Positions 20,634-40,033 of a stretch of DNA of 64,000 nt are shown piece by piece. Each line of letters opens with the position of its first letter. Position 1 is the stretch's first letter. The DNA is from an uncultured Nitrospiraceae bacterium (lineage in GTDB: Bacteria > Nitrospirota > Nitrospiria > Nitrospirales > Nitrospiraceae), in contig CAWJWJ010000002.1 in NCBI GenBank assembly GCA_963846575.1, positions 160,001-224,000 on the forward strand. The letters are read 5' to 3'. The position numbers and the translations under genes were made by a program. The notes beneath the pieces are model-generated. The model had not been told where the DNA came from. It did not search any database and saw only the letters and a program-made list of their open reading frames with translations.

Positions 20634-20834
20634 ACCAAATTCCACGAGGCTCCTGCCGAACCATCCGTGAGGCTGATGCACGAGAGCGAGGTGCCAGGTC
20701 ACGCTGCAGTGGAGCGAAGCGTCCGCACGCCAGCCGATCCCCGTTCCCGACCTGCCGGACGCCGGTGATCCAAGGCGACAGCGACCTTGTCCACTGTGTT
20801 AGGATGTCCACAGTCAGATCAGCCGGAGGACTAC

Positions 20835-22586: not shown

Positions 22587-22641
22587 CCACGAGCGGCTGG
22601 TACCTGGGCTCATACCTCGCTCGGCCAGGGACGAATCAGAC

Positions 22642-24162
22642 ATGCATCTGTTCGGTATCGAGACGGAATACGGGATCACGCGGGAGGATCTCGAGGTAGT
22701 CGATCCGGTCGAGGAGTCGATGGAGCTGGTCCGCGCCCACCTGACCGGCCGGTTCGAGCGTCGCTGGGATTATCGGGGCGAAGACCCGCATGAGGATGCG
22801 CGCGGGTTCCGTGTCTCCGGCCTGCAACAGGATAAGGAAGAAGACGATTTCGCCAAGATCGATGCTCATCGGCCCTTCTCGTTTCACGAAATGAAAAGTG
22901 ATCTGGTCCTGCCGAACGGCGCGCGGTTCTACAACGACCATACCCATCCCGAGTACTCCACTCCTGAATGTCGCACTCTCAAGGATCTGTTGGCGCATGA
23001 CCGGGCGGGGGAGCGCATCGTGCAGCGGGCCGCGGAACGCCGGAACCAGCATCTGGGCGGTGCGCATGTGCAGCTTTACAAGAACAATACCGATTTTCAT
23101 GGCCACAGCTATGGGTGCCACGACAACTACCTGGTGTCGCGCGCGCTTCCCTTTGCTCAGCTGGTCAGCGGGTTACTGCCGTTTCTGGTCAGCCGTCAGC
23201 TGCTGGCCGGCACCGGAAAGCTCGGGACCGAGGCGCAGGAGTCCGGCTTTGTGCCGGGGGGCTATCAACTCTCGCAGCGCGCGGACTTCATGGAAACGGA
23301 ACTGGGCGTGGATACGATGCACAATCGCCCGATTCTGAATACGCGCGATGAGCCGCATGCCGATCGGACGAAGTACCGGCGTCTCCATCTGATTCTCGGT
23401 GACGCCAACATGTGCGAATACGCGACTGCGCTGAAGGTAGGGACCACGAGGCTTGTGCTGGATCTCCTCCAGCAGGGGGGCGCGCCGGATCTTGAATTGG
23501 AGCATCCGGTCGCAGCGATCAAGCAGTTGTCGCGAGACCCGGACCTGAAGGCCACGGTGCGACTCAAGGATGGCCGCACGATCTCGGGTCTGGCGATTCA
23601 GGAGGCCTATTGGAATGCCGCGAGCCAGTGCAGCCGTGGCAGTGATCCGGATGCCGCTTGGGTCTTGCGGGAATGGCAGGACACCTTGCGCCTGCTCGCC
23701 CAGGATCGCAGTCAGTTGGTCGGGAAGCTCGATTGGGTGACGAAACACTGGTTGCTGGAGACGTTTGTCCGGGAAGAACGGCTTGCATGGGATGATCCCT
23801 GGCTGACCAGCTTGGATTTGGAATATCATAATATGAGTCCTGACCGGGGGTTGTTTCTCGGTTTGGAAGCAGAGGGGAAAACCTGGCGGATGACGAGCGA
23901 TCATGACATTGCCCGGGCCTTGTCTGTCGGTCCTGAGGACACACGGGGGGGACTGCGCGGACTCTGTGTCAGGCGATTCTCCGAGCAAATCACGACCATG
24001 CAGTGGGAACGAGTTCAATTTTCGGGAGGGCTCCGCGCGCGGACGCTTGAAATGGGTGACTTATTCCATCCCGATGACGTGCGGGCCTGTGCCGCCCTGT
24101 TTGAAACCGCGACTTCTCCAGCCGATGCCTTGGCTGCGTGGTCGAGACGAAAGGATGCCTGA
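22642..24162 (+). CDS. dop: Dop-like depupylase/deamidase
   Basis: GIETEYG, NGARFYNDHTHPEYSTPEC, YKNNTD..G.SYGCH, RPILNTRDEPHAD..YRRLH. Confidence 0.9.
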   Translation: MHLFGIETEYGITREDLEVVDPVEESMELVRAHLTGRFERRWDYRGEDPHEDARGFRVSGLQQDKEEDDFAKIDAHRPFSFHEMKSDLVLPNGARFYNDHTHPEYSTPECRTLKDLLAHDRAGERIVQRAAERRNQHLGGAHVQLYKNNTDFHGHSYGCHDNYLVSRALPFAQLVSGLLPFLVSRQLLAGTGKLGTEAQESGFVPGGYQLSQRADFMETELGVDTMHNRPILNTRDEPHADRTKYRRLHLILGDANMCEYATALKVGTTRLVLDLLQQGGAPDLELEHPVAAIKQLSRDPDLKATVRLKDGRTISGLAIQEAYWNAASQCSRGSDPDAAWVLREWQDTLRLLAQDRSQLVGKLDWVTKHWLLETFVREERLAWDDPWLTSLDLEYHNMSPDRGLFLGLEAEGKTWRMTSDHDIARALSVGPEDTRGGLRGLCVRRFSEQITTMQWERVQFSGGLRARTLEMGDLFHPDDVRACAALFETATSPADALAAWSRRKDA

Positions 24163-24164
24163 CG

Positions 24165-24359
24165 ATGCACTATATGCTCATGCCGGAACGCCGTGAGGGA
24201 CCCGGCGATCCCATGCCGAAGCCCTCGAGTCCTTCAGAAGAGGGGGGCGGGCCTCGAAGGCCGGACACGGGTTCGCCTGATAAGGATAACCTGCTGAAGC
24301 GAATGCGTAAGGTCGATCCCAAACAGGCGGAACGTTACAAGCAACGAACCGGTGAGTGA
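24165..24359 (+). CDS. ubact: UBact, prokaryotic ubiquitin-like modifier
   Basis: Small Pro/Gly-rich disordered protein between dop and prcB, ending LLKRMRKVDPKQAERYKQRTGE (R[T/S]G[E/Q] UBact terminus). Start may be 24165, 24174 or 24180. Confidence 0.92.
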   Translation: MHYMLMPERREGPGDPMPKPSSPSEEGGGPRRPDTGSPDKDNLLKRMRKVDPKQAERYKQRTGE

Positions 24360-24488
24360 GGCTGGCCGCCGGGAAGGGGAGGTGCACGATCGGGGTGGCG
24401 TGCGAAGGCCACCGTGGTAAGCCCGTCAGCCTGCCCGGGTCTCTTGGGGAATCGGAGTGAGAACACGTTGGAAAGGGTGGACAAGAGC

Positions 24489-25286
24489 ATGGGGATGCAA
24501 GGGGATTTTTTTCAGCTCTTGAAGGAGCAGGGTTATCAGTTTGGAAATCCTGTCGCCGCCGCGGCCGGGATCGATATTCCCAATGCCACGACGATCCTTG
24601 CGCTGAAGTATCGGGATGGCGTCCTGGTCGCAGGAGATCGCCGGGCCACGGCGGGCAACATGGTCATGTATGACCGGACCGATAAGGTCTTGGAAATCGA
24701 TCGCCATAGCGTGATGGCTATTGCAGGAGTCCCGGCAACCGCCTACGAGATGGTGCGCGTGCTGGAACATTCCTTCAAATACTATCGCCGTACGCAGCTG
24801 CAGGAACTCAGCTTTGAGGGAAAGCTCCGGGCCGTCTCCAAGCTGCTGAAGGAGAATGTGCCGGCCGCGCTGGCCGGAACCGGTGCGGTGGTGCCTGTTT
24901 TTGCGGGATATGACCATGAACAGGGTGCGGCCAAGATTTATTTCTACGATATCCTGGGCGCGGAATTCGAAGCGGTCGAATATGCCGTGTCCGGCTCGGG
25001 CTCGCCGACGATTCGAGGGATCCTCCATTATATGAATACCTGGGGACCGCAGCCCCTGGCCATGCTCCCCGAAGAGGAAGCGACGATTCACGCGCTCCGG
25101 CTGCTGACAAGTGCTGCGGAATTTGACTCCGCCACCGGCGGTGTGAACCGGGAACTCAATCTGTACCCCGTGATCAAGCTCATCACGGCGGCCGGAGTGC
25201 AGCCGATTGCAGGAGAAAAATTAAAACGTCTGTACGAAGCGGAAGTGGTACGCGGGGTCTCAACTCCGCCTGTCGTGCCGAGATGA
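24489..25286 (+). CDS. prcB: 20S proteasome beta subunit
   Basis: Propeptide, then T1 (nt 24588) TTILAL, D17 (GDRRAT), K33, GSGS, DSATGG. Confidence 0.93.
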   Translation: MGMQGDFFQLLKEQGYQFGNPVAAAAGIDIPNATTILALKYRDGVLVAGDRRATAGNMVMYDRTDKVLEIDRHSVMAIAGVPATAYEMVRVLEHSFKYYRRTQLQELSFEGKLRAVSKLLKENVPAALAGTGAVVPVFAGYDHEQGAAKIYFYDILGAEFEAVEYAVSGSGSPTIRGILHYMNTWGPQPLAMLPEEEATIHALRLLTSAAEFDSATGGVNRELNLYPVIKLITAAGVQPIAGEKLKRLYEAEVVRGVSTPPVVPR

Positions 25287-25318
25287 GCTGGTTTATCACA
25301 TCCTGAGGGTGACACGTC

Positions 25319-26158
25319 ATGTATGAAGAACCGTATCGGTGGGTCGAAGCAGTCGGCAATCGACGACAATATCTAGACGAACAATTCACCAAGGGTGCAC
25401 CGGTCGTGGCGTTGGCCTATGCCGGCGGCATCCTGATGCTCACCGTCAGCCGGGGGACCCCCAAGCTGTACGAGATCTATGATCGCATTGCCCTGGGCGG
25501 CATGGGGCATCCGGCGGACCTGGAAAAGTTGCGGTTCTCCCTGCTCGAGATGGCGCACGTCGAGGGATTTAATCGCTCGCCCTCCGATGTCACGGGCGCT
25601 CGCCTGATGAAGTACGGATTGGCTCCCACTATCAAGCAGGCCTTCGAAGAAATTTACAAGGCGCCGTTCATCGCGAAGATTCTGCTCGCGGAATTGGGAT
25701 CAAAGCCTGAGCGCGATTTGTTTTTGACGATCAATTATGACGGAACCTTTGAGGAAAGCCGTCGTCGGGCAGTGTTAGGAGCAACCGCGACAATTCAAAG
25801 GCGGATGAGCGACTATCTGGAATCGCAACCGGAATCCGGCCACACTTCTTTGGCCCAGGCTGTTGAAATCGCGCTCTGTGCCTGGGCGGTAGGGTCGCTG
25901 GCGCAGCTTTCCCATACGGCCGCGGACGGAGAGCCTACTGCCGGGCCCGGTCCGGCGGAAAAATCGTCTGAGGGTTCTTCGGCCATCCCGGGAAAGGCGG
26001 TTTTGTTGGGACATGTCCGCCAGACGGTCGTGGAAAAGGCGCTTGAATGTGTGTTGCTCGAACGCAACGGGCCAGGATCCTCAAAATATCGTGCACTCCG
26101 CACCGAGGACCTCGGTGCCCTGCTCCCGGCGGCCATGAAGGAGGCCGGCGCATCCTAA
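25319..26158 (+). CDS. prcA: 20S proteasome alpha subunit
   Basis: G.PVVAL.Y..GIL, KLYEIYDRI, SPSDVTG, KAPF; lies between prcB and pafA. Confidence 0.88.
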   Translation: MYEEPYRWVEAVGNRRQYLDEQFTKGAPVVALAYAGGILMLTVSRGTPKLYEIYDRIALGGMGHPADLEKLRFSLLEMAHVEGFNRSPSDVTGARLMKYGLAPTIKQAFEEIYKAPFIAKILLAELGSKPERDLFLTINYDGTFEESRRRAVLGATATIQRRMSDYLESQPESGHTSLAQAVEIALCAWAVGSLAQLSHTAADGEPTAGPGPAEKSSEGSSAIPGKAVLLGHVRQTVVEKALECVLLERNGPGSSKYRALRTEDLGALLPAAMKEAGAS

Positions 26159-26160
26159 CC

Positions 26161-27651
26161 ATGCTCAATCGTATTTTCGGCCTCGAAACTGAATATGGCC
26201 TGTTGGTGAATCAGGACCGACCTGATCACTCGCCCTCCTGGATTGCCCAGCGCATTCGCGATCACATTTTTCAGGCCGACCGACGCGGGCTCATGGATCT
26301 TCACCATCGAGGCCACGACGAGCCGCCCGGCAATGGGGGTTTCTTGACCAATGCGGGACGCATCTATATCGACATGGGGCATCTGGAGTATGCGTCTCCC
26401 GAATGTACGACATTGGCCGACCTGGTGGCCTCGGATCGCGCCGGAGACCGGATCATTCAGAATGCGGTCGCGGCGTTAAACCTGGACGAGACCGTGTCCC
26501 TCATCAAGAACAACATCGATCACGAAACCGACGCGACGTTCGGCTCGCATGAAAACTATCTCGTCACCAGACAATTCCCTTTCTCGCGCCGCGGACTTGG
26601 GCCGCTGGTGACGTTCCTCGTCACGCGTCAGGTGTTTACGGGGTCAGGCCGTATCGGTTGCGCGCGTGATCCGAATGAGTGGGTCCAGGTCGGAGGACTT
26701 ATCCTGCACAGGCCGGGGCTGCGGGATGCGACAGATCGGACGATTGTGCCGTTCCAGATCTCTCAGCGGGCGGATTATATCGTCAACGACTTCTTCGAGT
26801 GGGTGCAGCACAACCGGGCCATCGTCAATACGCGGGATGAGCCCCTGGCAGATCCTAATCAGTACCGTCGGATCCATCTGCTGTGCGGAGATTCCAATAT
26901 GGCCGAATACGCCACCGCGTTGAAAATGGGAACCACCGGTCTGGTCCTGCAACTGATCGAAGCCGGGCAGGCCCCGCGCGGGGTGGGCATCAACGAGCCG
27001 GTGGAGGCGCTCCAGGATATTTCACGCGATCCCGATCGTCAGTGGCTTGTGCAACTGGATTCGGGACATTCCATTTCCGCGCTCGATATACAGGAACAGT
27101 TTCTTGCGGCGGCGCAGCGCCATTGCAAGGGACAGGATGAGGAGACCGATTGGGTTCTGAAGGAATGGGAAGCCGTGTTGACCGATTTGCGAGGGGACTA
27201 TACCAAATTGGTGGGCCGGGTCGATTGGGCATCCAAGTTGTGGCTTCTGGAGACGTATCGGGAGGCCGAGCAGGCCGGCTGGGATGATCCTATGCTTAAG
27301 AGCCTCGATTTGGAATACCACAATCTGCACCCGGAGCGGGGCCTCTGTTATGGCCTGGAAGAGGAGGGGCGCGGCCCTCGGCTTACAACCGACAAGGCGG
27401 TCCATCTCGCGCAGGACAATCCGCCGCGCAACACGCGAGCGTTCGGCAGGGGCGAGTTGGTTCGACACCTCTTGGCCGGCGGTTCGCCGGAGGACCGTGG
27501 CGATGAGTTCGCGGACACTGACGACCGGCCGGACTGCGACTACATTATCAACTGGTCGAATTTTAAACTGCGGGGCACATCTCCGTTTTTTATGGCCGAC
27601 CCGTTCAAAACCTACGTGCAGGAAGTTCACGAACACATCGCCGGCCGGTAG
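26161..27651 (+). CDS. pafA: PafA-like modifier-protein ligase
   Basis: MLNRIFGLETEYG, GGFLTNAGRIYIDMGHLEYASPEC, HENYL, RAIVNTRDEPLAD, DLEYH. Start ATG 26161. Confidence 0.9.
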   Translation: MLNRIFGLETEYGLLVNQDRPDHSPSWIAQRIRDHIFQADRRGLMDLHHRGHDEPPGNGGFLTNAGRIYIDMGHLEYASPECTTLADLVASDRAGDRIIQNAVAALNLDETVSLIKNNIDHETDATFGSHENYLVTRQFPFSRRGLGPLVTFLVTRQVFTGSGRIGCARDPNEWVQVGGLILHRPGLRDATDRTIVPFQISQRADYIVNDFFEWVQHNRAIVNTRDEPLADPNQYRRIHLLCGDSNMAEYATALKMGTTGLVLQLIEAGQAPRGVGINEPVEALQDISRDPDRQWLVQLDSGHSISALDIQEQFLAAAQRHCKGQDEETDWVLKEWEAVLTDLRGDYTKLVGRVDWASKLWLLETYREAEQAGWDDPMLKSLDLEYHNLHPERGLCYGLEEEGRGPRLTTDKAVHLAQDNPPRNTRAFGRGELVRHLLAGGSPEDRGDEFADTDDRPDCDYIINWSNFKLRGTSPFFMADPFKTYVQEVHEHIAGR

Positions 27652-27658
27652 CTGCTGA

Positions 27659-28612
27659 CTACGGTTTCTTGCCGATCCGTTCCAGCCTGGCTTTCGACAC
27701 ATCGAACGCAAACCGCAATTGCACTGCATAGTACTTCTGGACGAGACCGGGTTGGTCCAATGGCCGGTCTTCTTCCCGGTAAAACGCCAGTTCCATATCA
27801 TTCCACCGCACCGCGATGCCGAGAATCCAGTCGAGTTCCGTGGGATTGAGCGTATTACCGGCATCCCGATCGGTAAAAAAATTCATATCGCCGTACAGCA
27901 CCACCCTGTTTTTATATAAATCAAGATCGGCATGGGCTACGTAACGGAAAAGGGCCCGTCCGGTATTGTTGGGGCGAGCAAAATAGTTTCTATTGTGAAA
28001 GAGCCATCCGCCCCCGGCGTAAGCGGTGAGATTTTGATGCGGAAAGGTCCCACGCCACCAGGTGGAGTCCTGACTCGCAAGAAAGCGCGCTGTCACGAGC
28101 GTATCGGCGTAGGCCTGTACGATACCGCTTCGATCCAGCGGGGCGTCACGCTCGTATTGGAGGCGCCAGTTGAATCGGTTCAGGGCACCGGTGAACGCGT
28201 AGGTGCCATCCCACTCGGAGAGTTGGATCCATCCGTTGGTACGGTCGGAAAAAAAGTTCTGATCAGTATAAAAGGTGAGGTACTGTTTGAAAAGATCTGT
28301 TTCCAGATGCAACATGTGCCGCATTCCGACCAGGCCTGAATTGTCGGGCCTGGCCGCGAAGGACGGATTCTTGACGAAGGCGCCGGTGAGGAGATATCCG
28401 CCGAATAATGGTTCTTCCTCCTCCCGGACTTCGTGTTCCGCTTCTTCCATGGAAGGGAGCGGGCGCCCGTATTTTTCCAGTCCGAAGGCCTGCACCGGGA
28501 AGAAAGACAAGACGGATAATAGACAACCGATCAACAGCAACAAACCGCGTGGGTCTCGATTCGGGTATTGACAGCACATCATTCTTGGCAACGGGCAAAA
28601 ACCTCTTCGCAA
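27659..28612 (-). CDS. Hypothetical exported/outer-membrane beta-rich protein with a two-fold internal repeat
   Basis: Signal-like hydrophobic stretch; repeated ARPxNxG...NFF[ST]DR...PLDxxGxVQxY unit; start uncertain. Confidence 0.75.
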   Translation of the reverse strand: MRRGFCPLPRMMCCQYPNRDPRGLLLLIGCLLSVLSFFPVQAFGLEKYGRPLPSMEEAEHEVREEEEPLFGGYLLTGAFVKNPSFAARPDNSGLVGMRHMLHLETDLFKQYLTFYTDQNFFSDRTNGWIQLSEWDGTYAFTGALNRFNWRLQYERDAPLDRSGIVQAYADTLVTARFLASQDSTWWRGTFPHQNLTAYAGGGWLFHNRNYFARPNNTGRALFRYVAHADLDLYKNRVVLYGDMNFFTDRDAGNTLNPTELDWILGIAVRWNDMELAFYREEDRPLDQPGLVQKYYAVQLRFAFDVSKARLERIGKKP

Positions 28613-29541
28613 TGATCCGAGGCATTGACCGACCGAGGGACGAACCGATATGCGACCCGGTCAACTCGCCCCTGATGAATGGTCACGATCGCCCGGCAGC
28701 CATGATGCACAAGGGGACAGCTGCTCTTGGAAGATGCCATGGACTCTTCGAGCAACGGTGTTTCCCGATAGTACCGAAGCCGGGTGAACTGTCCGCTCCG
28801 CCATTCGCGTAATGACTGGCCGGCACAGGTCAGCACCTGTACCTCGCTCTTTCCTCGCAACGAGAGCTGTTGCGGATATCCTTGAGTGGTGGGTGGGGCA
28901 CTGGGGCAGCCCAGTGCCAAGCGGCAGGGGTGATGGTGAGAATCCCTCTGAACGCTCGCACGGAGGTCGTTCGCATAAAGAATGTGTGCCCAGGGAGGAA
29001 TGGAGCACATTGGGTAGCATACCCGCTTAGTCAAAGCAACAAGGCCTGGGACGGTCTGAGGTGGACCCTGGACCTGACGCAATGTGTCTCAGGCCGCAAG
29101 TGCTAGGAGTGAGCAGAGAATAGGATGTTGGTACGGGCAGTCTTGGAGCATGGCGTCCACAGAGGGCCGCGATTGTCATGGCTCTAACTCGCGGCGATCT
29201 TTCTCCATATGCCCGGGCATTTAATGAGCCGAAGTCCATACTTATGTACGCCCTGTATATTTTGTGCGTACACCAACCGGAAATTGTCTCTCTCTCCACG
29301 ATCTGCAGATGATGATGTGAAGTAGGGCCGAATGGCTAGAGACAATCGGCTCATTTGTCGGCTGAGTAGGTTGTTTCTCTGCATGCCTGACCATGCACAT
29401 TCCACACATGCTGTGTAATTAGAACGTTTTGTGATCATTTGCGAAAGGTTGTCGCAGTGTTGAGCTTCCCAGACGTCTTATGTATCAGGCAACGACTGCA
29501 TTGAATGTTTTCTTCAAACGTCAATTCGCGGGTCAAGTAGG

Positions 29542-29570
29542 TTGAAAAGAATTTGTTAGTTAGGTAGTAT
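29542..29570 (+). promoter_or_regulatory. Putative sigma70 promoter for the PilZ-UndA-like gene
   Basis: TTGAAA-17 nt-TAGTAT in an AT-rich region. Confidence 0.45.
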
Positions 29571-29694
29571 ATCTGAATGCTTATGCATACAACGTAACTA
29601 TACGTATACATATGGCAGATTAATGCGGCTTGAATCTCCCCACTAAGACGATAGGCTAGCTTGGGTTATCCGCGTTTCGTCGAAGGAGAAAAGA

Positions 29695-30975
29695 ATGCTT
29701 AAACATGAACCTCAGGGCCGCTTAAAGACGAAGCCCCGGCATAATCCTGTTAATGAGCGCATGGACTCAGCCAGTTCAGAAATGGGCGCCATCAACATCC
29801 GCGTGAGACTTCGGGTGCAGGATGAGGCTCGTAACGTGGAGGGCATGACCTTTTCCATAGGTCCTCAATGCATCTCGTTTAACACAAACTATGTCATGCG
29901 TACCTCAACTGGCCTTTCGCTGAAATTCAGAGTGGGAGCAGGGCTGTGCTATCTTAGTTTCTACGGACAGGTGATTTCTTGCATCCCGGCCGAGGATCAA
30001 GCTTACAAGCATCAAGTAAGGGTTCGATTGGCTCCTATTGAAGAGTTTGAGCAACGCATGCTTCAGTCAGTATTGAAGGAGATGCTGCACGATGAATCGA
30101 TGAGGGAAAAGACGTTGCTGACCATCCAGCCGACCTGTGAGACGTCGACCGATGAAGCTACAGGGGTTCCCGAAGAAACATTCCTGCCACTTCGCTCTCC
30201 GCTGGGGAGCCCTCACAAAACAAATAGTGATGATGCTGCCGATGATCCGGTATGGATCATAGAGATGAAACGGGAATTGAAACCTTACTGGGATGCTGTG
30301 CTGGAGTCTCGCATAGTGCAGGAAGCCTCAACGGGGACCCTTTCGCTCCCGCGAATGCAGGGGTGGCTGATTCAGCTATATCCATTCATCGAGACATTTC
30401 CTAAATGGATTGCCTTGACCATTGCGCGGGCCTCTGACCACCGAACCAGGTCTTTCATGATCGACAATATCAGAATCGAAAAGCGCCACGCCGCCCAGTG
30501 GGTCGACATGGCCAAAGGTTTTGGAATTACTCAGGCAGAAATGGACTCAGTGCAGACTCTTCCAGAGGTCGATGCTCTGACCCATTGGCTGTGGTCAGTT
30601 AATTCATGGGGTTCCCTCGCTGAAGGAGTAGCCGCCACGAACTATGCCGTCGAGGGTGTAACCCAGGGCATAGCAAAGCTCACCGTGATGGGATTCCCTC
30701 GGTATGCGAAGATGCAGGGCCTTAATCTCGACAAACGAGCCTATGCGTGGATGGTCAACCACGCACGATACGACGAGGTGCACCCACTGCAGGCGCTGGA
30801 AGTCATTAAAATGTATACCTCTCGTGAATTACAAGAGAAGGTTGTTTTCGCCGCTCGCCGGAGCCTTGAGTATCTTTTTATGGCATTGGATGCATGCTAT
30901 GTTAAATACGCTCCTGTGTCGACAGCTTCAAGTCGCCGCGAGCTTTCCTCGCGGTCCCGTGCAAAAATCTGCTGA
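29695..30975 (+). CDS. PilZ-like domain fused to a heme-oxygenase-like diiron oxidase of the UndA/TenA/PqqC superfamily
   Basis: AAGGAG RBS. C-terminal domain has NIRIEKRH, PEVDALTHWLW, AATNYAVEG and HARYDEVHPLQALEVI, giving ligands E262/H265/E320/H356/D360/H363. N-terminal beta-strand pattern is PilZ-like. Confidence 0.85.
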   Translation: MLKHEPQGRLKTKPRHNPVNERMDSASSEMGAINIRVRLRVQDEARNVEGMTFSIGPQCISFNTNYVMRTSTGLSLKFRVGAGLCYLSFYGQVISCIPAEDQAYKHQVRVRLAPIEEFEQRMLQSVLKEMLHDESMREKTLLTIQPTCETSTDEATGVPEETFLPLRSPLGSPHKTNSDDAADDPVWIIEMKRELKPYWDAVLESRIVQEASTGTLSLPRMQGWLIQLYPFIETFPKWIALTIARASDHRTRSFMIDNIRIEKRHAAQWVDMAKGFGITQAEMDSVQTLPEVDALTHWLWSVNSWGSLAEGVAATNYAVEGVTQGIAKLTVMGFPRYAKMQGLNLDKRAYAWMVNHARYDEVHPLQALEVIKMYTSRELQEKVVFAARRSLEYLFMALDACYVKYAPVSTASSRRELSSRSRAKIC

Positions 30976-31231
30976 GATCTCCGACGGGTGAACACCGTCG
31001 GGGTTGCCGCCTACCTTTGAGTTATTCTCACCAAAGCCTTACAATAATGCCGGTTTGCTATCTTGTTTTCTTCGGATGAATCGCTGCGAGTGCCCTGCGC
31101 TGGCTCTGTCGACCATTCAGGGCCGTGAACGATCCTGAAAATGCAATGGAGACTGCTTCGTTCTCTTGACATGTGGACTTGATCAACCCCTTGCCCTGAT
31201 CGGTCCATTGATACCCGTTTAGGGAGAGCTA

Positions 31232-34200
31232 ATGAATGCCTTTGCGGTCTCTGGGCTCCTCATAGGGCTGACCTCGACTGCGCTCGGATACTTTGTGTAT
31301 CTCAAGGGACGGGAACGATCGGTCAACCGTTTGTGGTTCTACTTCAGTCTCTCCGTTGCAGTGTGGGGATGGGGGGGGGATGTGGATCGGCCTCGCCAGA
31401 ACACCCCCAGAGGCGTTATTGGCTTGGCGTGTCGCATTTGCGTGTGGCGTAGTTTGGATTCCGATTTTGTTTGCACATTTTGTTACTGAATTCTGTGAGC
31501 GGCCTCGGAAGCATTTTTTCGCTATAAGTTATGCCCACGGGCTCCTCTTTGCTCCACTGGTATGGACCGATCTGTTTTTCAGCAATGTCCGGCCGGTGTT
31601 CTCCTTTTTTTATGCGACCCCCGGGTACGTGTTTCCCTATTTCGTCCTTTGGTGGATGGCTACGGTTGCGTATAGCCACGTTATACTCGCATCAACCGGT
31701 AGGCAGCGTACTGGGCAGAAGAAGACTCAGATCGCATATTTTCTCCTAGCTACGTCCATTGGCTACGTTTTCGGGGCGCTGGACTATCTCCCTATTTTTT
31801 CAATAGACCTCTACCCTTATGGGAATTTTGCAATCGTACTGTATCCCGTCATCATGACCTACGCAATTGTGCGCTACCGTCTACTAGATATTAGCGTAGT
31901 CCTGAACAAGGGATTGGCGTATGCGATAGTGCTCGGCATCATTGTAGTGGCCACCTCGATCGGGGCGGTCCTCAGTCAGCGCGCCACGGGATACTCCACC
32001 CCCCCCCTATTGGCCGGAACTCTATTTCTGATTTGTGCTTTATGGGTGCTCAGCAACAATCCGCATTCGAAGTCTAATGTCCTCTTCAGTGGGATGTGCG
32101 GCGCCGCCTGCTTCTGGTTGTTCGGCTGTTTCATGCTGTTCTCCGCGTCTGAGGAGGATGAAGCGTTTTTTTGGATGAGGGTCATTTATATCGGTATTGC
32201 GCTCTTGCCCGCCTTGACCTATCACTTTGCGCGGTCCATCACCGGAGAGGCTGCGCGTGACCGCCTGATCAGCTGGAATTATGCAATCGGTGGCGTGTTT
32301 CTTGGTCTAGCATTCACTTCATACCTGTTTGCTGGGCAGTACACGTACTACTGGGGCCGCTACCCCAAGGCGGGACCACTGCACCCACTATTAGTGCTCT
32401 ACGTGCTGGTGGTCGGATTTCAGACGCTCCGTAGCCTGTACAAAGAGTTTCGCCTGCATGGCCGATCATCCCCTTTGCTTGGGGCTCAATTGAAATACAC
32501 CCTGGCGGCGCTGGCCCTTGGGTTTATGGCTCCTCTCGATTTTCTGCAGAACTACGGGGTGGGGTTTTATCCAGTGGGCTACCTGCTGGCGGGCCTTTCG
32601 GTCACGGTCGTCTCCTATGCGATCGCCCGTTATGAATTGATGGATGTGTCCTTCGTGCCGACACGCCCCAAAGTTATGCTGTCTATTAAGTTAATGGGAT
32701 TGATTCCGGCTTACATGGTGATCTTGCTTGTCATTCGGATCTTTACCGGAACGTTTCATTACCTGCTGGCAGGGGTGTTGTTTGCTTTATTCGTCGTCGT
32801 ATCCAATGGTTTGGCCAACCTTCAAAAAGGGGTGGAACGAGCGATCGGGCAAACCCTGTTCAGGGAACGCTACGACGCGTACGATACGCTGGTGCAGTTT
32901 TCAAAGTCTCTTGTGGCGATTCTCGAACTGAAATCACTCACGAAGGAGATCGTTCAGACGTTGGCGCGCGTGATGAATATCAAAAGTGCGTCGGTCTATG
33001 TACTCGATAAAGAACAAGGGATATACAGTCTGACCGCTTCCTATGGATTTGCCACCCGTGATTCCCTCGTGTCGCCGATCAAGATGGAGAGTGAGTTTCC
33101 CCGGGCGCTGCTCCGCACCGACTCGGCACTTGTGCGAGAGGAAATAGAATATGATCGGGCCGAGACGGACTACTTACGACTGCTCGACACCTTAAAAGCG
33201 TTAGAGTCGGAGGTCTGTATCCCCCTCATCAGCAAGGAGCGCCTCGTCGGGTTCTGCAATTTGGGCCGACGCTCGAATCACGGCATTTATTCAACAGAGG
33301 AGCTAAGCCTCCTTAAAACACTGGCCCAGCACGCCGCCATAGCTATCGACAATGCCTTGTTGTACGAAGATCTGCGCCGGTCACAGCTGTTGATGCGACG
33401 TACCGACCGGTTACGTTCACTCGAAACCATGGCCGGAGGGTTTGCGCACGAGATTCGGAATCCGCTGACCTCCATCAAAACGTTTGTGCAGCTGGCTCCG
33501 GAACGACGTGACGATGTTGAATTTATGGAGCAGTTCAGTCAGGTGGTGTGCGAGGACGTCGAGCGCATTGAGCGGTTGGTGCACGAGATTCTGGATTACG
33601 CACGCTACATGACGCCAAAGCTCACTCAGGAGAATCTAAACGATGTGGTGTCTTCGTGCCTTTATTTTATTGAGGTGAAGGCGAGCAGCAAGGCTATCAC
33701 GATTCAGAAAGACCTGGCCGGTGATCTCCAATGCGTGAAGCTCGATCGACAGCAAATAAAGCAGGTCTTGCTGAACCTCTTCATTAACGCCATGGAGGCA
33801 ATCGGAGGTGAGCAGGCAGGACGGCTGGTTGTTCGCACGCGGAAGCTGGTCCGGCCCGCCAATGATCCTTGGGTTCAGATCGAGGTGGAGGATAGCGGAC
33901 CCGGTATCGACCCCGGAGATCTCGACCATATTTTTGATCCGTTTTATACCACGAAACATGAAAGCGGAGAGCGTGAGGGAACTGGGTTGGGCCTGACCAT
34001 CGCACATCAAATCGTTCAGGAGCATGGCGGCTATCTCGAGGTCACCAGCGAAGTCGGCCGCGGCACCAAATTCATGGTCAATCTTCCCGTAAATCCACCC
34101 GTGGCGGAGTGGCACGCTGCCCAGCCGGTCTATGAAGAGGGGAAAAAACTAACCGGCGGGTTTCTCGCCAGACCGCAGCTGGGATTGGAAGAGCAATTTC

Positions 34201-34235
34201 ACAAACCATCCTTCGGGGGAAACGTGACGACATAG
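31232..34235 (+). CDS. Sensor histidine kinase, 2x HisKA_7TM - GAF - HisKA - HATPase, with a +1 frameshift at a G9 tract (31371-31379)
   Basis: ATG 31232 after an AGGGAG RBS reads MNAFAVSG..AVWGWGG; removing one G joins it to the 31293-34235 frame (MWIG..) giving 1000 aa. H-box FAHEIRNPL, N-box QVLLNLFINA, DSGPGI, IFDPFYTTK, GTGLGL. Confidence 0.88.
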
Positions 34236-34344: not shown

Positions 34345-35340
34345 CTAGTCGAGCCCACTCGGTTCCGCCGAAACCACCTCCAGGATTTTCTGTTCCGCCC
34401 AAAAGTGATCTCCGCCCGCTCGACCCTTCTGCAGAAAACCGCAATGGCCCCCGTAGCGCGGCGTCAGCAGCTTGATGTTCGGATTGCGCTTGATCGCCGG
34501 TATGTCAAACATTGAGAACGGTATAAAGGGGTCATCGTGGGCGGTGATAATCAGGGTGGGGACAGCGATATCCTGCATCACATGGCGAGCTCCCGCTCGA
34601 TCGTAATAATCGGCACAGTTCGTATACCCTCCATCGCGGGCGGTAAATACCTCATCAAACTGTCGGATGCTCTTAATCGAACGTAGTGCGTCGAGATCCC
34701 ACTTGCCAGGGAAAATTTTGGCTTTGCGCTTCATGCGGGCTTTCAGGCCGGAAAGAAAGTGCCGGTGGTAGAGCCAGTTTCCTGGTTGTTCCAAAGCCGC
34801 CACGCATTGGGAAGGATCAATATTGGGACTGACCGCCACTATGCCTGTCAGGCTCGAATAAGAGCTGCCCAGTTCCCCTGCTGCCTTTAGCACAAGGTTC
34901 CCTCCCATCGAATACCCTATGAACCAGATTCTGTTCATGCCCTCCATTACCGTAAGCTCATGCAGGATTCTCCGAAAATCCTTACTGCGTCCGCTGTTAT
35001 ATAGCGTGGGAGTTAGATGGTCAGTCCCGCCACATGTTCGCTGATTCATGCGGAGGACATTAAACCCCGCAGAGTAAGCCTTCGCTGTAATGCCGTGCAT
35101 GTAATGAGAATCGGCGCTTCCTTCCAGACCATGAACTAACACGACGGTTGGCGACGCTCTAGGATTGTTCTGCCAGTGCGAGTAGCCCAGTAGTTGTGTG
35201 CCTGGTTCCGTAGTAAAAAACCGCCGGCTTTCTGGAATAAGCTTAGACCAATTTTCACGCGGCCAATATCGAGAAACAATCGTCATGAGGTGAGGATTGC
35301 GTAGTAACTGGATGGGGATGAAGTCGTCTGTAACGTTCAT
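34345..35340 (-). CDS. YheT-family alpha/beta hydrolase
   Basis: NPHLMTI, HGLEGS, GYSMGG nucleophile, DDPFI, GGHCGF. Confidence 0.9.
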   Translation of the reverse strand: MNVTDDFIPIQLLRNPHLMTIVSRYWPRENWSKLIPESRRFFTTEPGTQLLGYSHWQNNPRASPTVVLVHGLEGSADSHYMHGITAKAYSAGFNVLRMNQRTCGGTDHLTPTLYNSGRSKDFRRILHELTVMEGMNRIWFIGYSMGGNLVLKAAGELGSSYSSLTGIVAVSPNIDPSQCVAALEQPGNWLYHRHFLSGLKARMKRKAKIFPGKWDLDALRSIKSIRQFDEVFTARDGGYTNCADYYDRAGARHVMQDIAVPTLIITAHDDPFIPFSMFDIPAIKRNPNIKLLTPRYGGHCGFLQKGRAGGDHFWAEQKILEVVSAEPSGLD

Positions 35341-36144: not shown

Positions 36145-36423
36145 TTATCCTTGGTAGGCTTGTCCGAGGGCAGCGGACTCGCCTTTATGGGTCATCAATT
36201 GCCCCGTGGCGCTAACAGCCTGCATCTCAATGGCCTCATGCTTTGCGGCGTTACAGACGACGACGCAGAGTTCGCAACCCTTGCATCGATCAATCGTTAC
36301 TTCTGCCACCATTTTGGCGGAATTAAGATCAAGACAGTTGGCTTCTGGACAATACATGATGCAGAGGCGGCAGCCCTTCTTGGCCACGCATTTCTCGTCG
36401 ATGACTTGCGCTACGTTATACAT
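36145..36423 (-). CDS. porE: 2-oxoacid:ferredoxin oxidoreductase ferredoxin-like (epsilon) subunit
   Basis: C....GCRLC...CP and CKGCELC...C 4Fe-4S motifs; last gene of the five-subunit operon. por versus for assignment uncertain. Confidence 0.8.
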   Translation of the reverse strand: MYNVAQVIDEKCVAKKGCRLCIMYCPEANCLDLNSAKMVAEVTIDRCKGCELCVVVCNAAKHEAIEMQAVSATGQLMTHKGESAALGQAYQG

Positions 36424-36446
36424 GCGACGTGGTCCCTTCTCTCTCG

Positions 36447-37154
36447 TTAAGCCGCAACGGCAGGATTACCGACCTGCAACTCGATTTTATTCTTGTCGGC
36501 CCATTCGCTCGCGATCTCATAAGCCGCTTTAACCGTCGCCAGGTTCTTTGCTAGTAACATTTCCTTCTTGGCGAATTTCTTTTTGATTGCCTCGTCCAAT
36601 GAAGCAGTTCCGCCTGAGGCAACAAATTTCTTGCCGAATCTTTCTTGCAACGCACCGTCTAGAGCTTCCATGGAGACACATTTGGTAATGCCTGCCACCG
36701 AGCCAATCATGGCCATGTTCGTTGATAGCTCCGTGCCCGCAACTTCGATCGCAAGTTCGGTCCCTGCAATATAAAACAAGGCGACATTCAGATCTTTGAG
36801 TCGCTGGATGTCTTCCTCTGACAACAGAGGTTGGGCTGAGTTGATGATCACGACGCCACCTTCTTTTACGCCGGAGTAGAAGGGCATGGTGTAACTTTTT
36901 CCCATGGTAATGACCTGGGGATGAAACACCTCGATGACGTCTGGGAACACTAGCTCACCACGGTCATAAATCCGCTCGATGCCAATGCGGCAGTAACTTT
37001 CTGCGGGAGCCATACGCTTCTCAGCACCAAAGAACGGATTTGATATTGAAAACTTTCCGTCCCGGTTCGCTGCCATCGCCATTACATGGGCTGCCGTGAC
37101 TGCACCTTGTCCGCCCAGCCCTGACATTCGAATATTGAGTCTTTTCTTAATCAT
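36447..37154 (-). CDS. porC: Pyruvate (or 2-oxoglutarate):ferredoxin oxidoreductase gamma subunit
   Basis: IRMSGLGGQG, FGAEKR..P, NMAMIG. Confidence 0.88.
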   Translation of the reverse strand: MIKKRLNIRMSGLGGQGAVTAAHVMAMAANRDGKFSISNPFFGAEKRMAPAESYCRIGIERIYDRGELVFPDVIEVFHPQVITMGKSYTMPFYSGVKEGGVVIINSAQPLLSEEDIQRLKDLNVALFYIAGTELAIEVAGTELSTNMAMIGSVAGITKCVSMEALDGALQERFGKKFVASGGTASLDEAIKKKFAKKEMLLAKNLATVKAAYEIASEWADKNKIELQVGNPAVAA

Positions 37155-37170
37155 GAACGACCTCCGATCC

Positions 37171-38073
37171 TTAAGCTTTTTCTGCTAACTGTTTGGCGGC
37201 GGCTTTCTTTTCCTTGGCCTTGGCATCTCGCTCCGCCAAAAGCTGCTTCGCCGGCTCGCTGATATATTCTTTGTACGCGAAGCGTTCGGCTGGTTTCTCG
37301 GAGTCCCGCATTTCCTGCAGGCCTTCCATGCTGTTCTTGCCAATTTCCAAAATGCAGGGGGTGTAAAGCTGCAGATAGGTCGGGCCGAGCTCTCGTGCAA
37401 TTAGGACTGCATTGCGGACGACCTTCTCGACCAGGGACGGCTTGCTCACGGTGCAGTTCACAACGTAGTGACAGCCGGATTCGCGAGCAATCTCAGGCAG
37501 ACGAACTTTGTCGAACAGTTTGCCAACCGGAGCCATTTTAGCGACGAAGCCTTTCTGCATCAGGCCACTCTCCTGTCCACCTGTATTGGCGTACAGTTCG
37601 TTGTCAAAGCAGATGGTCGTGAACTTCTCTTGCCGGAACCAGGCCTGCAAGGTCATATCTAACCCAATGTCGACTGTGGCTCCGTCACCTGCCAAAACAA
37701 CCACATCCTTGATGCGGTCGGGGAATCGGACGGAAAGTGCGCGTTTCAATCCTGAAGCAATAGCGTTCTGATTTCCAAAAAGGGAATGGATATTGTGGAC
37801 GGCTACCATGGGGAATACGAGGCTTGTGCAGCCCGTTGATCCAACCATTACCGTATCTTCCGGATTTGGGAGTGAGGCCAGAATATAGCGGAACGCCATG
37901 GATTCCGGACAACCGGCACATAGGGAATGTTGCTCAATCAGTTCCTTTGATGTTCCAATATCTTTCCAGCCACGGTCCTCTTTTCCATAGGTGGCGCTTT
38001 GGACCAAGTCTTGGTAGTCCGACGGCATGATGTCATACAGATCTTCAGAAATCTTGATTCGCTCTTTGCTCAT
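37171..38073 (-). CDS. porB: Pyruvate (or 2-oxoglutarate):ferredoxin oxidoreductase beta subunit
   Basis: CAGC, TGC, GDG..DIG, DNELYANTGGQ TPP-binding motif, YTPC. Confidence 0.9.
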   Translation of the reverse strand: MSKERIKISEDLYDIMPSDYQDLVQSATYGKEDRGWKDIGTSKELIEQHSLCAGCPESMAFRYILASLPNPEDTVMVGSTGCTSLVFPMVAVHNIHSLFGNQNAIASGLKRALSVRFPDRIKDVVVLAGDGATVDIGLDMTLQAWFRQEKFTTICFDNELYANTGGQESGLMQKGFVAKMAPVGKLFDKVRLPEIARESGCHYVVNCTVSKPSLVEKVVRNAVLIARELGPTYLQLYTPCILEIGKNSMEGLQEMRDSEKPAERFAYKEYISEPAKQLLAERDAKAKEKKAAAKQLAEKA

Positions 38074-38135
38074 ATATGCCTCCTCAAAGCCTATTGTTCG
38101 TAAACAGTAAATGGAAATTCAATGCATGGCTGGCT

Positions 38136-39347
38136 TCAGCTACCTCTGCCCGCGAGCGACTCCGAACGCAAGCCCAGAGCGGTCTTGATTTCAGAGACAA
38201 TGATTTCAGGAGGCATTGTCATGCCGCCACACACATGAGGTCCAGCATGGACCCGCTCACTGTTAGGAATGGTCGATTTGATTTCTTTTGCCAGCCAGCC
38301 GGTCACATTGAACTCCGGCACAAAAATGTGTTTGGCGTTCTTTGTGGCCTCACGAATTTCTTCTCCGGGCCAGGGTCGAAGCGACTTCACCTTCACTAAG
38401 CCGCAACGCAAGCCCTCGTCTTCAAGGAGGCGGATGGCCTCTCGGCCTTGCGAAACGGCCGTACCTGAAGCAACAATCACGATATCTGCATCGGTATTTT
38501 CCGTGTCAACCAGGCCGTTGATCCATTTAATTGTATGTTTACGGGACCGTTCTATCGCTGCCCAGATCTCCTGCTGCCATGACGCATGAGTGGCATAGCT
38601 GATGTAGTTGCTCTTCATGATAAAAGGATCACGCATCATCCGAACAGGAGGGCACTCCATGTCCATGCACGGCACAGGGGATCGATACGGATCATATGGC
38701 GGAAGGCACATGTCGGCAGGCGTGAGATTGACGACATCTTTGGTGTGGGTCACAAAGAATCCATCACAACAGAGCGCTAGCGGCAAATGCACTTCGGGTT
38801 CCTCGGATACCATGAAGCCTTTCAGAATCCAGTCGAAAAAATCCTGGGCCGTTTCTGCATGCCAAACAAGCATACCGGTATTCAACAAATAGGAAATTTC
38901 GATGGTATCTGGCTGAATTGACAATGGCGAATTAATCCCGCGGCAAGTGACGATCATTTGAATGGGAAGACGTGCTCCTGCCCACATGGGAAAATTTTCC
39001 ATGGCACGCATCGTTCCGGGACCGGCAGTCGTAGTGAACACGCGTGCACCGCCGAATGCCGCACCTGCACACTGGGACATGACGGCAAATTCGCTCTCGC
39101 CACGGAAATAATCACCGATATAACCCTCGGCAAACAACTCCCCGATGAGAGCTGCAGCTTCGCTTTGTGGGGTAATCGGGTATGCAATCATGACGTCGCA
39201 ACTGGCTCGCCGGAGGGCCTCCTTGATAACCTCGCTTCCGGTATAGAAAGAGGGATTACGGGGGGCGTCGTGCATCATCGTCCAGGCGTCTGTAAACGTT
39301 TGACCTTTTTTATTCTGTGTCCCGATCAGGGATTTTGTTTCCGCCAT
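38136..39347 (-). CDS. porA: Pyruvate (or 2-oxoglutarate):ferredoxin oxidoreductase alpha subunit
   Basis: AYPITPQS, ESE, TTTAGPG, DGFFVTH, LRPWP. Confidence 0.9.
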   Translation of the reverse strand: MAETKSLIGTQNKKGQTFTDAWTMMHDAPRNPSFYTGSEVIKEALRRASCDVMIAYPITPQSEAAALIGELFAEGYIGDYFRGESEFAVMSQCAGAAFGGARVFTTTAGPGTMRAMENFPMWAGARLPIQMIVTCRGINSPLSIQPDTIEISYLLNTGMLVWHAETAQDFFDWILKGFMVSEEPEVHLPLALCCDGFFVTHTKDVVNLTPADMCLPPYDPYRSPVPCMDMECPPVRMMRDPFIMKSNYISYATHASWQQEIWAAIERSRKHTIKWINGLVDTENTDADIVIVASGTAVSQGREAIRLLEDEGLRCGLVKVKSLRPWPGEEIREATKNAKHIFVPEFNVTGWLAKEIKSTIPNSERVHAGPHVCGGMTMPPEIIVSEIKTALGLRSESLAGRGS

Positions 39348-39397
39348 GGTCTTGGCCTCCTTTCGATCTTCGTTAGAAGAGTTGAAACCTCTCGTCT

Positions 39398-40033
39398 TTA
39401 GTTGGAAGCGCTTGTCTTGGCCGATGTCAGTCTTGGTTTCACCGTGCCTTTAAGTTTGCGGATCCAATCCCCCAGTCTTAAGATTTTCTCAACTGAGGCA
39501 TCTCTGAAAGAGAGCATGGCATCTTCGTGCCCTGCCTGAGCACACATAGCAACCGTATAGCATGAGGTGCCACCGCGAATAATCTTGAGAGATAAGTTCG
39601 CTTGGTGACAGTGTACGCCAATGAACATGCAGCAGTCGATTTTGTTATGCCAAATTGTTAGATTAGGGTGGTTCGGATTAATTTCGACTTCGGGATTGAT
39701 CTTCGGATACTTCGGACGATAGTCAGGCATGGGGATCAGCATCGGCTTTTGACCTGGCTGAACGCATTCTTTCAAAATCTCATATAGTTTTCTGACGGCG
39801 GCTGCCTTCTTCGCTGCTTTCTCGTTCCATGCCCAGAGAACTAAAGGGCCAGGGAAAATTGTTGGAACCTGTGCCATTAGAAATTGCCGAGCCGCTTCCT
39901 CGTAAGCCTTTTCTTCTGGCACGATTACACCATTAATATGCGCCTCCCCTGGATTGGGTAGATAAATACCCATGGATGCCGCAGCCGGGGGGAGGAAATG
40001 TTCTGGGCCTGGTAGCACGCGATACTGAGTCAT
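39398..40033 (-). CDS. porD: Five-subunit 2-oxoacid:ferredoxin oxidoreductase delta subunit
   Basis: First gene of the operon; PTIFPGPL, MPDYRPKYPKI.PE.EINPNHPN, GVHCH as in Aquificota/Nitrospirota five-subunit enzymes. Confidence 0.8.
   Translation of the reverse strand: MTQYRVLPGPEHFLPPAAASMGIYLPNPGEAHINGVIVPEEKAYEEAARQFLMAQVPTIFPGPLVLWAWNEKAAKKAAAVRKLYEILKECVQPGQKPMLIPMPDYRPKYPKINPEVEINPNHPNLTIWHNKIDCCMFIGVHCHQANLSLKIIRGGTSCYTVAMCAQAGHEDAMLSFRDASVEKILRLGDWIRKLKGTVKPRLTSAKTSASN

Follow-up and report, generated by a model that had tools for sequence, protein, structure and literature searches.

An exchangeable cassette of an UndA-like diiron enzyme and a 7TM sensor domain in Nitrospiraceae: a candidate lipid-signal synthase with its matched receptor

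The stretch of DNA analysed here (hereafter the window, 64,000 nucleotides) comes from an uncultured Nitrospiraceae bacterium (assembly GCA_963846575.1, contig CAWJWJ010000002.1, positions 160,001 to 224,000) and carries two neighbouring, co-oriented genes at 29695..34235: gene 1, a fusion of a PilZ-like domain with a diiron enzyme resembling UndA, and gene 2, a sensor histidine kinase with two seven-transmembrane (7TM) domains. A preliminary interpretation drawn from the letters and open reading frames (ORFs) of this DNA, which we call the sequence-only reading, took the two for a standalone unit with its own AT-rich upstream region and without an adjoining response regulator, and proposed that the enzyme makes a fatty-acid-derived signal that the kinase senses within the membrane. 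The domain content of both genes and the AT-rich region were borne out, and no response regulator adjoins the pair on the window gene map. The pair does stand alone on that map; across congeners, however, it fills a conserved slot that they occupy with another enzyme and another sensor. The UndA-like gene and the first 7TM domain form an exchangeable cassette, and we estimate at roughly 60% the probability that it works as a lipid-signal synthase with a matched receptor. The features at the locus are as follows.

29041..31839, + strand: variable cassette comprising the upstream region, the PilZ-UndA-like gene, a spacer and the greater part of the first 7TM domain (blastn against loci L147-L150)
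29041..29694, no strand: AT-rich upstream region, likely promoter, within the cassette (GC content)
29695..30975, + strand: gene 1, degenerate PilZ-like domain plus UndA-like heme-oxygenase-like diiron enzyme, 426 aa (ORF, family and structure matches)
29791..30132, + strand: PilZ-like beta-barrel, aa 33-146 (weak TIGR02266 match and structure model; without RxxxR and [DN]xSxxG)
30250..30906, + strand: diiron domain, aa 186-404 (alignment to UndA and 120 homologues)
31232..34235, + strand: gene 2, sensor histidine kinase, 7TM-7TM-GAF-HisKA-HATPase (two frames here; start matches intact relatives)
31232..31892, + strand: first 7TM domain, enzyme-matched sensor of the UndA type (sequence sorting, breakpoint, L016 model)
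31371..31379, + strand: run of nine G (G9), frame break (reading frames)
32007..32648, + strand: second 7TM domain, lineage-following (12 enzyme-type changes, versus 4 in the first domain)
32925..34094, + strand: GAF, HisKA and HATPase_c (family scan, congener comparison)

The gene 1 protein matched both PF14518 (Haem_oxygenas_2) and PF03070 (TENA_THI-4) above cut-off, and its best solved relatives were the UndA chains 4wwj, 6p5q and 3oql (E ~1e-30), with CADD next at 7e-10. Profile comparison likewise gave E 4e-44 for UndA versus 2e-11 for CADD. A structure model (mean predicted local distance difference test score, pLDDT, 83.4) showed a beta-barrel (residues 36-146) followed by a helical domain (186-404); a Foldseek search with the model returned UndA 4wx0 as the best match (E 6e-14; CADD 2e-10); an ESM Atlas search with gene 1 gave no usable match. 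By sequence and by fold, the closest characterised relative of gene 1 is UndA, to which its diiron domain is ~33-35% identical, and the identities TenA, PqqC and CADD were ruled out by scores far below those of UndA. In the alignment, the iron ligands E262, H265, E320, H356, D360 and H363 correspond to UndA D198 (for D360) and to what we take to be E101, H104, E159, H194 and H201. Five of them are kept in 120/120 homologues and H363 in 119/120. With its helical heme-oxygenase-like fold and its E-x2-H, E and H-x3-D-x2-H ligands, gene 1 is a heme-oxygenase-like diiron (HDO) protein.

The substrate contacts V65 and F68 of UndA correspond to I232 (118/120 homologues) and F235 (120/120), and the aux-alpha2 stretch aligns without gaps and without an extra Glu insertion. 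UndA numbering was placed on gene 1 with a two-residue offset in the alignment and checked against V65, F68 and D198 in an excerpt of PMC7848743. UndA F239 corresponds to A397, in a helix that aligns without gaps and has identical S, Y, L and C residues as anchors; among the 120 homologues this position is Ala in 115 and Gly in 4, and the F239 pocket floor of UndA is not kept. Native UndA prefers C10-C14 substrates, and F239A extends its range to C16-C18 (excerpt of PMC6361979). Since the gene 1 pocket has Ala at this position, a long-chain alkene of about C15-C17 would be the likeliest product, rather than volatile 1-undecene.

The N-terminal part of gene 1 matched TIGR02266 weakly, and a Pfam scan of the window's protein found no PilZ match; PF07238 was found on many homologues. 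The motifs by which PilZ domains bind cyclic di-GMP (c-di-GMP) are RxxxR and [DN]xSxxG. At four loci (L034, L036, L037 and L039), UndA-like proteins of ~265 aa without PilZ lie 3' of HPF-like and CBS-domain genes (labels by eye); at L039, an insertion-sequence (IS)-like ORF follows the UndA-like gene and a kinase is 7 kb off.

Gene 2 contains two HisKA_7TM domains (PF16927), GAF, HisKA and HATPase_c, all above cut-off, and is the sole HisKA_7TM gene found in a genome-wide search of the window's genome. Its true start is ATG 31232, in agreement with the N-terminus of intact relatives of about 1000 aa (L016, L017 and L042, 1001-1005 aa). In this assembly its frame breaks at the G9 run. We hold it possible, if somewhat doubtful, that this is a real slipped-strand mutation leaving the receptor off in this strain, in a signal-blind or phase-variable cell, which would be compatible with the family model. 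Frameshift-like breaks occur at 1/16 G/C runs >=9 assembly-wide versus 52/400 random sites, so that no excess of homopolymer errors was found across the assembly, and codons at the site are G-rich in relatives. Yet the rest of gene 2 is intact and well conserved, and homopolymer errors are common in long-read assemblies. Moreover, the run has only 4-7 G in 42 representative relatives, which rules out a conserved phase-variable tract. In another assembly, an orthologous kinase is split into three frames (L032:11404-14297).

The first 7TM domain of the intact relative L016 was modelled (pLDDT 87.5) as seven helices plus a beta-hairpin. Compared with folds of G-protein-coupled receptors (GPCRs), the model gave a best Z of 16.4 (root-mean-square deviation 4.0, 206 aligned residues, adhesion GPCR 8jmt) and Z 12-14 for many other GPCRs; helical bundles reach Z ~13-14 from arrangement alone. 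Foldseek returned no match at E <= 0.001, and the GPCR likeness is a lead only. An ESM Atlas search with an intact gene 2 relative gave only generic 7TM-kinase clusters. Many invariant residues are kept among UndA-type sensors. His82, His149 and Cys88 (alignment positions) are also kept, and each of the four other types has Leu in place of Cys88. In ethylene receptors, the alkene is bound via copper held by Cys/His.

The region upstream of gene 1 has a GC content of 0.44 at 29200-29599 versus 0.58 genome-wide. Sigma-70-like sites were present there at chance level (3 found versus 2.5 expected, one at 29542-29570), and a terminator scan also stayed at chance level. The sigma-54 consensus was found in 1/72 regions upstream of cassette enzymes and not in the window; because such promoters are not enriched there, autoinduction of the enzyme gene is unsupported.

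Comparison with congeners revealed the borders of the exchanged segment. By blastn, the window and the congener loci L147-L150 share 75-79% identity on both sides of the pair; this match ends at 28802-29040 and begins again at 31840-31854, and nothing between the two borders matches these loci. The point of resumption (~31840) is the end of the first 7TM domain. At the protein level, in 40-residue segments, the window kinase is 22-42% identical to congener kinases at residues 1-200 versus 57-100% at residues 241-960, and most segments of GAF/HisKA/HATPase_c reach 80-100%. The two closest UndA-type kinases, which come from other genera, match the window kinase at 60-92% identity over residues 1-200. 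The borders and this identity pattern therefore define the exchanged unit as likely promoter, enzyme and first sensor domain. Four 20-kb congener loci share a common order of Pup-proteasome genes, two unknown genes, enzyme, kinase and YheT-like hydrolase, with PilZ-LuxD-methyltransferase as the slot enzyme in all four, and 18/18 congener kinases examined follow a LuxD-methyltransferase. Within one genus, G434 and G435 carry UndA and LuxD alleles, respectively, at the same slot.

The pairing of UndA-like enzyme and 7TM kinase extends well beyond the window. Homologue searches yielded 91 loci. Excluding 2 distant ones (<44% identity) and 15 whose downstream flank was <600 nt left 74 testable loci. 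A 7TM kinase lies directly downstream in 63 of these, divergently in 6 and 7 kb away in 1, while 4 have none; two of these four lack upstream flank and cluster with the divergent loci. Overall, adjacency holds at 69/74 loci and in 46/48 clusters at 90% identity. The UndA-like gene itself is patchily distributed (12/284 family genomes, 0/33 congeners, 8/401 genomes in a phylum sample), and the closest titled relatives are from Nitrospiraceae. A search of the window's genome for the nitrifier marker amoA (PF02461) gave no match, and the control for that search gave none anywhere either. A profile of the first 7TM domain had matches, in tiers, in 96/284 family genomes (the family-wide and congener counts include two unpublished genomes, G451 and G455, on which nothing else here depends), and the kinase is present in 30/33 congeners. 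Nine other genomes matched the sensor profile at E <= 1e-100; eight of them have an UndA-like gene, and in the ninth the contig ends 226 nt upstream.

Conversely, 80 regions around sensor matches were inspected, covering most of the non-congener matches and 18/30 congeners. A 7TM ORF was present in 79, a family GAF-kinase in 72 and at least 700 nt of upstream flank in 69. Directly upstream of 67/69 family kinases lies one of five acyl-thioester or fatty-acid enzymes: acyl-ACP (acyl carrier protein)-reductase-like (27), LuxD-methyltransferase (26), HMG-CoA-reductase-like (8), FabH-like (3) or UndA-like (3). Of the remaining two, one (L172:1783-6708) joins a LuxD-methyltransferase and the kinase in a single 1641-aa frame, whose junction seems out of frame and which is possibly an artefact; the other (L198:3528-4604) has a sixth enzyme type, a PilZ domain with a hot-dog thioesterase (PF13279), before a double-7TM kinase and beside an IS-like fragment. 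No such enzyme neighbours the four more distant 7TM proteins that lack the family kinase core. The partner enzymes were typed by best match (LuxD 1tht, E 2e-21; acyl-ACP reductase 6jzu, 7e-17; HMG-CoA reductase; FabH), and the reductase, HMG-CoA reductase and FabH types are called "-like" because they fall below NCBIfam cut-offs. A related PilZ-like domain is present on most cassette enzymes (76/92 tested). FadL occurs at 15/25 reductase-type versus 3/43 UndA-type representative loci.

The range of alleles bears on two other accounts of the pairing. One is that the kinase detects an external fatty acid or foreign signal, such as diffusible signal factor (DSF), which the enzyme then destroys or converts. 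We consider this quite improbable: the LuxD plus methyltransferase, acyl-ACP reductase, FabH and FabF types belong to biosynthetic families, and these other alleles, FabF clusters included, use internal acyl-ACP/CoA. It gains from the facts that UndA acts on free fatty acids, that FadL is an uptake channel and that DSF fatty-acid signals occur in the same phylum (excerpt of PMC8357829). The other account, which we also judge unlikely, is cell-autonomous lipid control, in which a hydrocarbon or other lipid made by the enzyme stays in the membrane and is monitored by the 7TM domain of the producing cell, without any intercellular message. With Ala at the F239 position, the expected alkene is long and poorly volatile; products of UndA and acyl-ACP reductase can be membrane hydrocarbons in cyanobacteria (excerpt of PMC6361979); and the sigma-54 count upstream of the enzymes gives no autoinduction motif. 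However, close relatives swap unrelated chemistries at one slot, which a housekeeping membrane role would presumably not need, and FadL channels recur nearby.

To compare the parts of the paired proteins, 134 enzyme-kinase pairs were condensed to 91 representatives, of which the 71 with a complete family-type core were used for trees. For 91/91 representatives, the first 7TM domain closest to their own comes from a kinase paired with the same type of enzyme, identities being 57-73% within enzyme types and 26-46% between them. On the first-7TM tree (71 kinases, FastTree), enzyme type changes 4 times, the minimum (shuffled mean 37.1), and each enzyme type forms one clade with 96-100 SH-like support. 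In contrast, the core trees of the same 71 kinases require 15 changes for GAF, 16 for DHp-CA and 15 for GAF plus kinase. In 37 double kinases, enzyme type changes 12 times on the second 7TM domain, much as on the core, compared with 4 times on the first, which rules out the second as the enzyme-matched sensor. Sister kinase cores with different enzymes include L156 and two genus-mates, L167 and L170, L017 and L157, and L042 and four window congeners. Within the UndA type (n = 20 pairs), enzyme distance follows sensor distance (rho 0.85) more closely than kinase-core distance (0.50). Related genomes are not independent, and these sorting results are to be read as descriptive, comparing one part of each protein with another. 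The putative synthase and the sensor domain of its putative receptor co-vary as a unit, the criterion applied to quorum-sensing pairs. Together with the conserved adjacency, this is the pattern that genomes would show for a synthase beside its receptor. The interpretation given by the sequence-only reading is partly supported, with three amendments: the pair is one allele of a multi-enzyme cassette to which only the first 7TM domain belongs, the alkene predicted from Ala at the F239 position is long-chain, and gene 2 has a broken frame in this assembly.

Such co-sorting might also arise by hitchhiking, if recombination tracts simply end in the conserved middle of the kinase and sensor and enzyme are not functionally coupled. 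The right breakpoint (aa ~200) does sit where sequence conservation rises, and the PilZ domain likewise tracks the enzyme (5-6 changes), which also rules it out as a lineage-following recombination anchor. We nevertheless regard hitchhiking as very improbable: the match between enzyme and sensor survives the divergent layout (6 loci) and single, double and hybrid kinases, and UndA-type sensors keep their many invariant residues. It also holds in tandem arrays (L045, L051 and L052), where a PilZ-reductase with its own sensor kinase is followed by a PilZ-UndA with its own; at L051 and L052, sigma-54 and HD-GYP regulators come after the tandem cassettes. The hybrid cores that carry UndA-type sensors (L076, L077, L078, L093 and L097) are 24-30% identical to the usual core and reach 1400 aa with REC.

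The genes that flank the slot are conserved as well. On its right lies the hydrolase mentioned above:

34345..35340, - strand: YheT-like alpha/beta hydrolase, conserved to the right of the slot (family scan; NF008218 below cut-off)

Further right, a conserved group at 36145-40033 (-) resembles ferredoxin and 2-oxoacid:ferredoxin oxidoreductase subunits (by eye). The conserved left flank is a Pup-proteasome-like cluster at 20787-27651 with an ATPase, a Dop/PafA pair and alpha/beta subunits (labels from translations). Two conserved genes without Pfam match, 27659-28612 and 28579-29082 (-), lie between this cluster and the cassette; the first resembles a secreted or outer-membrane protein and the second a lipoprotein.

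Candidates for the output side lie elsewhere in the same genome. A region outside the window (G000:C2:794365-802742) encodes a REC-PAS-PilZ-LuxD-methyltransferase, a GAF-kinase without 7TM, a REC-sigma-54 and a REC-HD protein, labelled by similarity to annotated relatives. Over 60 residues, the DHp of this 7TM-less kinase is 75% identical to that of the window kinase; the next full-length match reaches 33%. The same regulator array, with an enzyme-7TM cassette in its middle, is present at L020, L063, L074 and L160, and the G000 region resembles that array with its cassette slot empty. These observations suggest that the REC-sigma-54 and REC-HD-GYP proteins are likely partners of the orphan window kinase. 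In the phylum of genome G619, related sensors were found in 23 of 201 genomes; about 8 of these follow FabF-like genes, in some cases accompanied by ACP, FadL and a methyltransferase and without PilZ, and the weakest matches have sugar-epimerase contexts. Two loci from low-GC genomes (L257 and L260) are PilZ-less and have FadL, FabF, a short-chain reductase and an ICMT-like methyltransferase before a 7TM-GAF kinase and a regulator, with ACP also present in L257.

For the window allele, the proposed mechanism would run as follows. A thioesterase, for example the LuxD-type protein at G000:C2:798519-802742, would supply a free long-chain fatty acid, which the UndA-like enzyme would decarboxylate in an O2-dependent reaction to a C15-C17 1-alkene. 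The alkene would move between cells, possibly via FadL-type channels, and be bound within the membrane by the first 7TM domain, shifting kinase activity. The phosphoryl group may then pass to the REC-sigma-54 and REC-HD-GYP proteins (G000:C2:794365-797131), and the HD-GYP protein would alter c-di-GMP, with feedback on those PilZ domains whose motifs are intact, unlike the window's. Exchange of enzyme and sensor together would change the chemical dialect while the downstream wiring stays.

Several points weigh against a synthase-receptor cassette. Its product, ligand binding, expression and dependence on population density all rest on prediction; the HDO superfamily is chemically varied (excerpt of PMC7848743), and ~33-35% identity to UndA is limited. 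The window's PilZ domain lacks both c-di-GMP motifs, which are kept together in 41/108 PilZ-bearing homologues, and the window kinase is broken at its G9 run. L030, L039 and L041 have an UndA-like enzyme without an adjoining kinase, and at L264 the gene immediately upstream of a family kinase does not encode an enzyme of this kind. Regulators occur at few loci (sigma-54 in 4/43 of the UndA type, many loci being short), and the sigma-54 consensus is nearly absent upstream of the enzymes. Finally, physical linkage by itself yields some co-inheritance, and all trees are FastTree trees of related genomes.

A wider reading, to which we give somewhat less than even odds, is that Nitrospirota and at least one other deep lineage possess an undescribed chemical-dialect system, in which one conserved kinase/c-di-GMP circuit is served by interchangeable cassettes, each an unrelated enzyme with its own GPCR-like 7TM domain. 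The products would be an alkene, a methyl ester, an aldehyde, an alcohol or mevalonate-like compound, and a beta-keto or free acid, and the window allele would supply a bacterial receptor devoted to a long-chain alkene that the cell itself makes. Such matched enzyme-sensor pairs would allow candidate ligands to be produced and tried out directly, and the other alleles would serve as specificity controls that the system itself provides. Should the products act as signals between cells, Nitrospira relatives living in soils and in treatment plants would use strain-level lipid dialects besides N-acyl-homoserine lactones (AHL) or DSF. A natural UndA family of the F239A type is also a candidate catalyst for long-chain alpha-olefins. 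The cassette system was not described in the literature found, a body that largely lacks subscription journals and excludes supplements (the HDO network in the supplement of PMC7848743 may include these proteins), nor is it mentioned in an excerpt of PMC8895600. No receptor for bacterial 1-alkenes appeared in the literature searched, and HisKA_7TM is listed without a ligand (excerpt of PMC5847659).

Among known systems, UndA of Pseudomonas (4WWJ, 6P5Q) shares with gene 1 its fold, six iron ligands and V65/F68 contacts; gene 1 differs in its ~33-35% identity, its N-terminal PilZ fusion and its Ala in place of F239. Pseudomonas undA also adjoins a signalling gene, rbdA, a likeness to the cassette pairing, and 1-undecene made by UndA has been proposed as an aerial signal, for which the excerpt of PMC10614000 identifies no receptor. 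The partner there is a c-di-GMP phosphodiesterase, whereas that of the cassette is a 7TM histidine kinase. PrsK, the XrtA/PEP-CTERM kinase (TIGR02916), has a similar layout of membrane sensor, GAF and kinase with a sigma-54 regulator. Gene 2 is not PrsK, scoring 148.3 against a cut-off of 300 over the cytoplasmic part only (an intact single-7TM relative scores 148.7), and the exopolysaccharide context of PrsK is absent at the cassette.

The DSF/Rpf system (RpfF-RpfC-RpfG, in Leptospirillum) likewise combines a fatty-acid signal enzyme, a sensor kinase and a REC-HD-GYP output via c-di-GMP (excerpt of PMC8357829). In contrast to it, the cassette has no RpfF crotonase and another sensor domain, and the window kinase lacks REC/Hpt; with gene 1 an HDO protein and gene 2 without REC/Hpt, membership in DSF/Rpf was rejected, rpfF having been looked for in the cassette rather than genome-wide. 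In the Phc system of Ralstonia (PhcB methyltransferase, 3-hydroxypalmitic acid methyl ester or 3-OH PAME), a histidine kinase senses a volatile fatty-acid methyl ester (excerpt of PMC10614000); the LuxD-methyltransferase allele would work like Phc, whereas the window allele is a predicted decarboxylase. In staphylococcal agr, as here, a variable block of signal-making genes and part of the sensor kinase defines allelic groups (excerpt of PMC12312760). While agr alleles are variants of homologous peptides, those of the cassette are unrelated enzyme folds with predicted different lipid chemistries and a HisKA_7TM sensor, and such swaps of whole enzyme folds at one locus exceed agr-type variation. 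Taken together, the comparison suggests that the cassette works like agr, Rpf, Phc or 1-undecene signalling and belongs to none of those tested.

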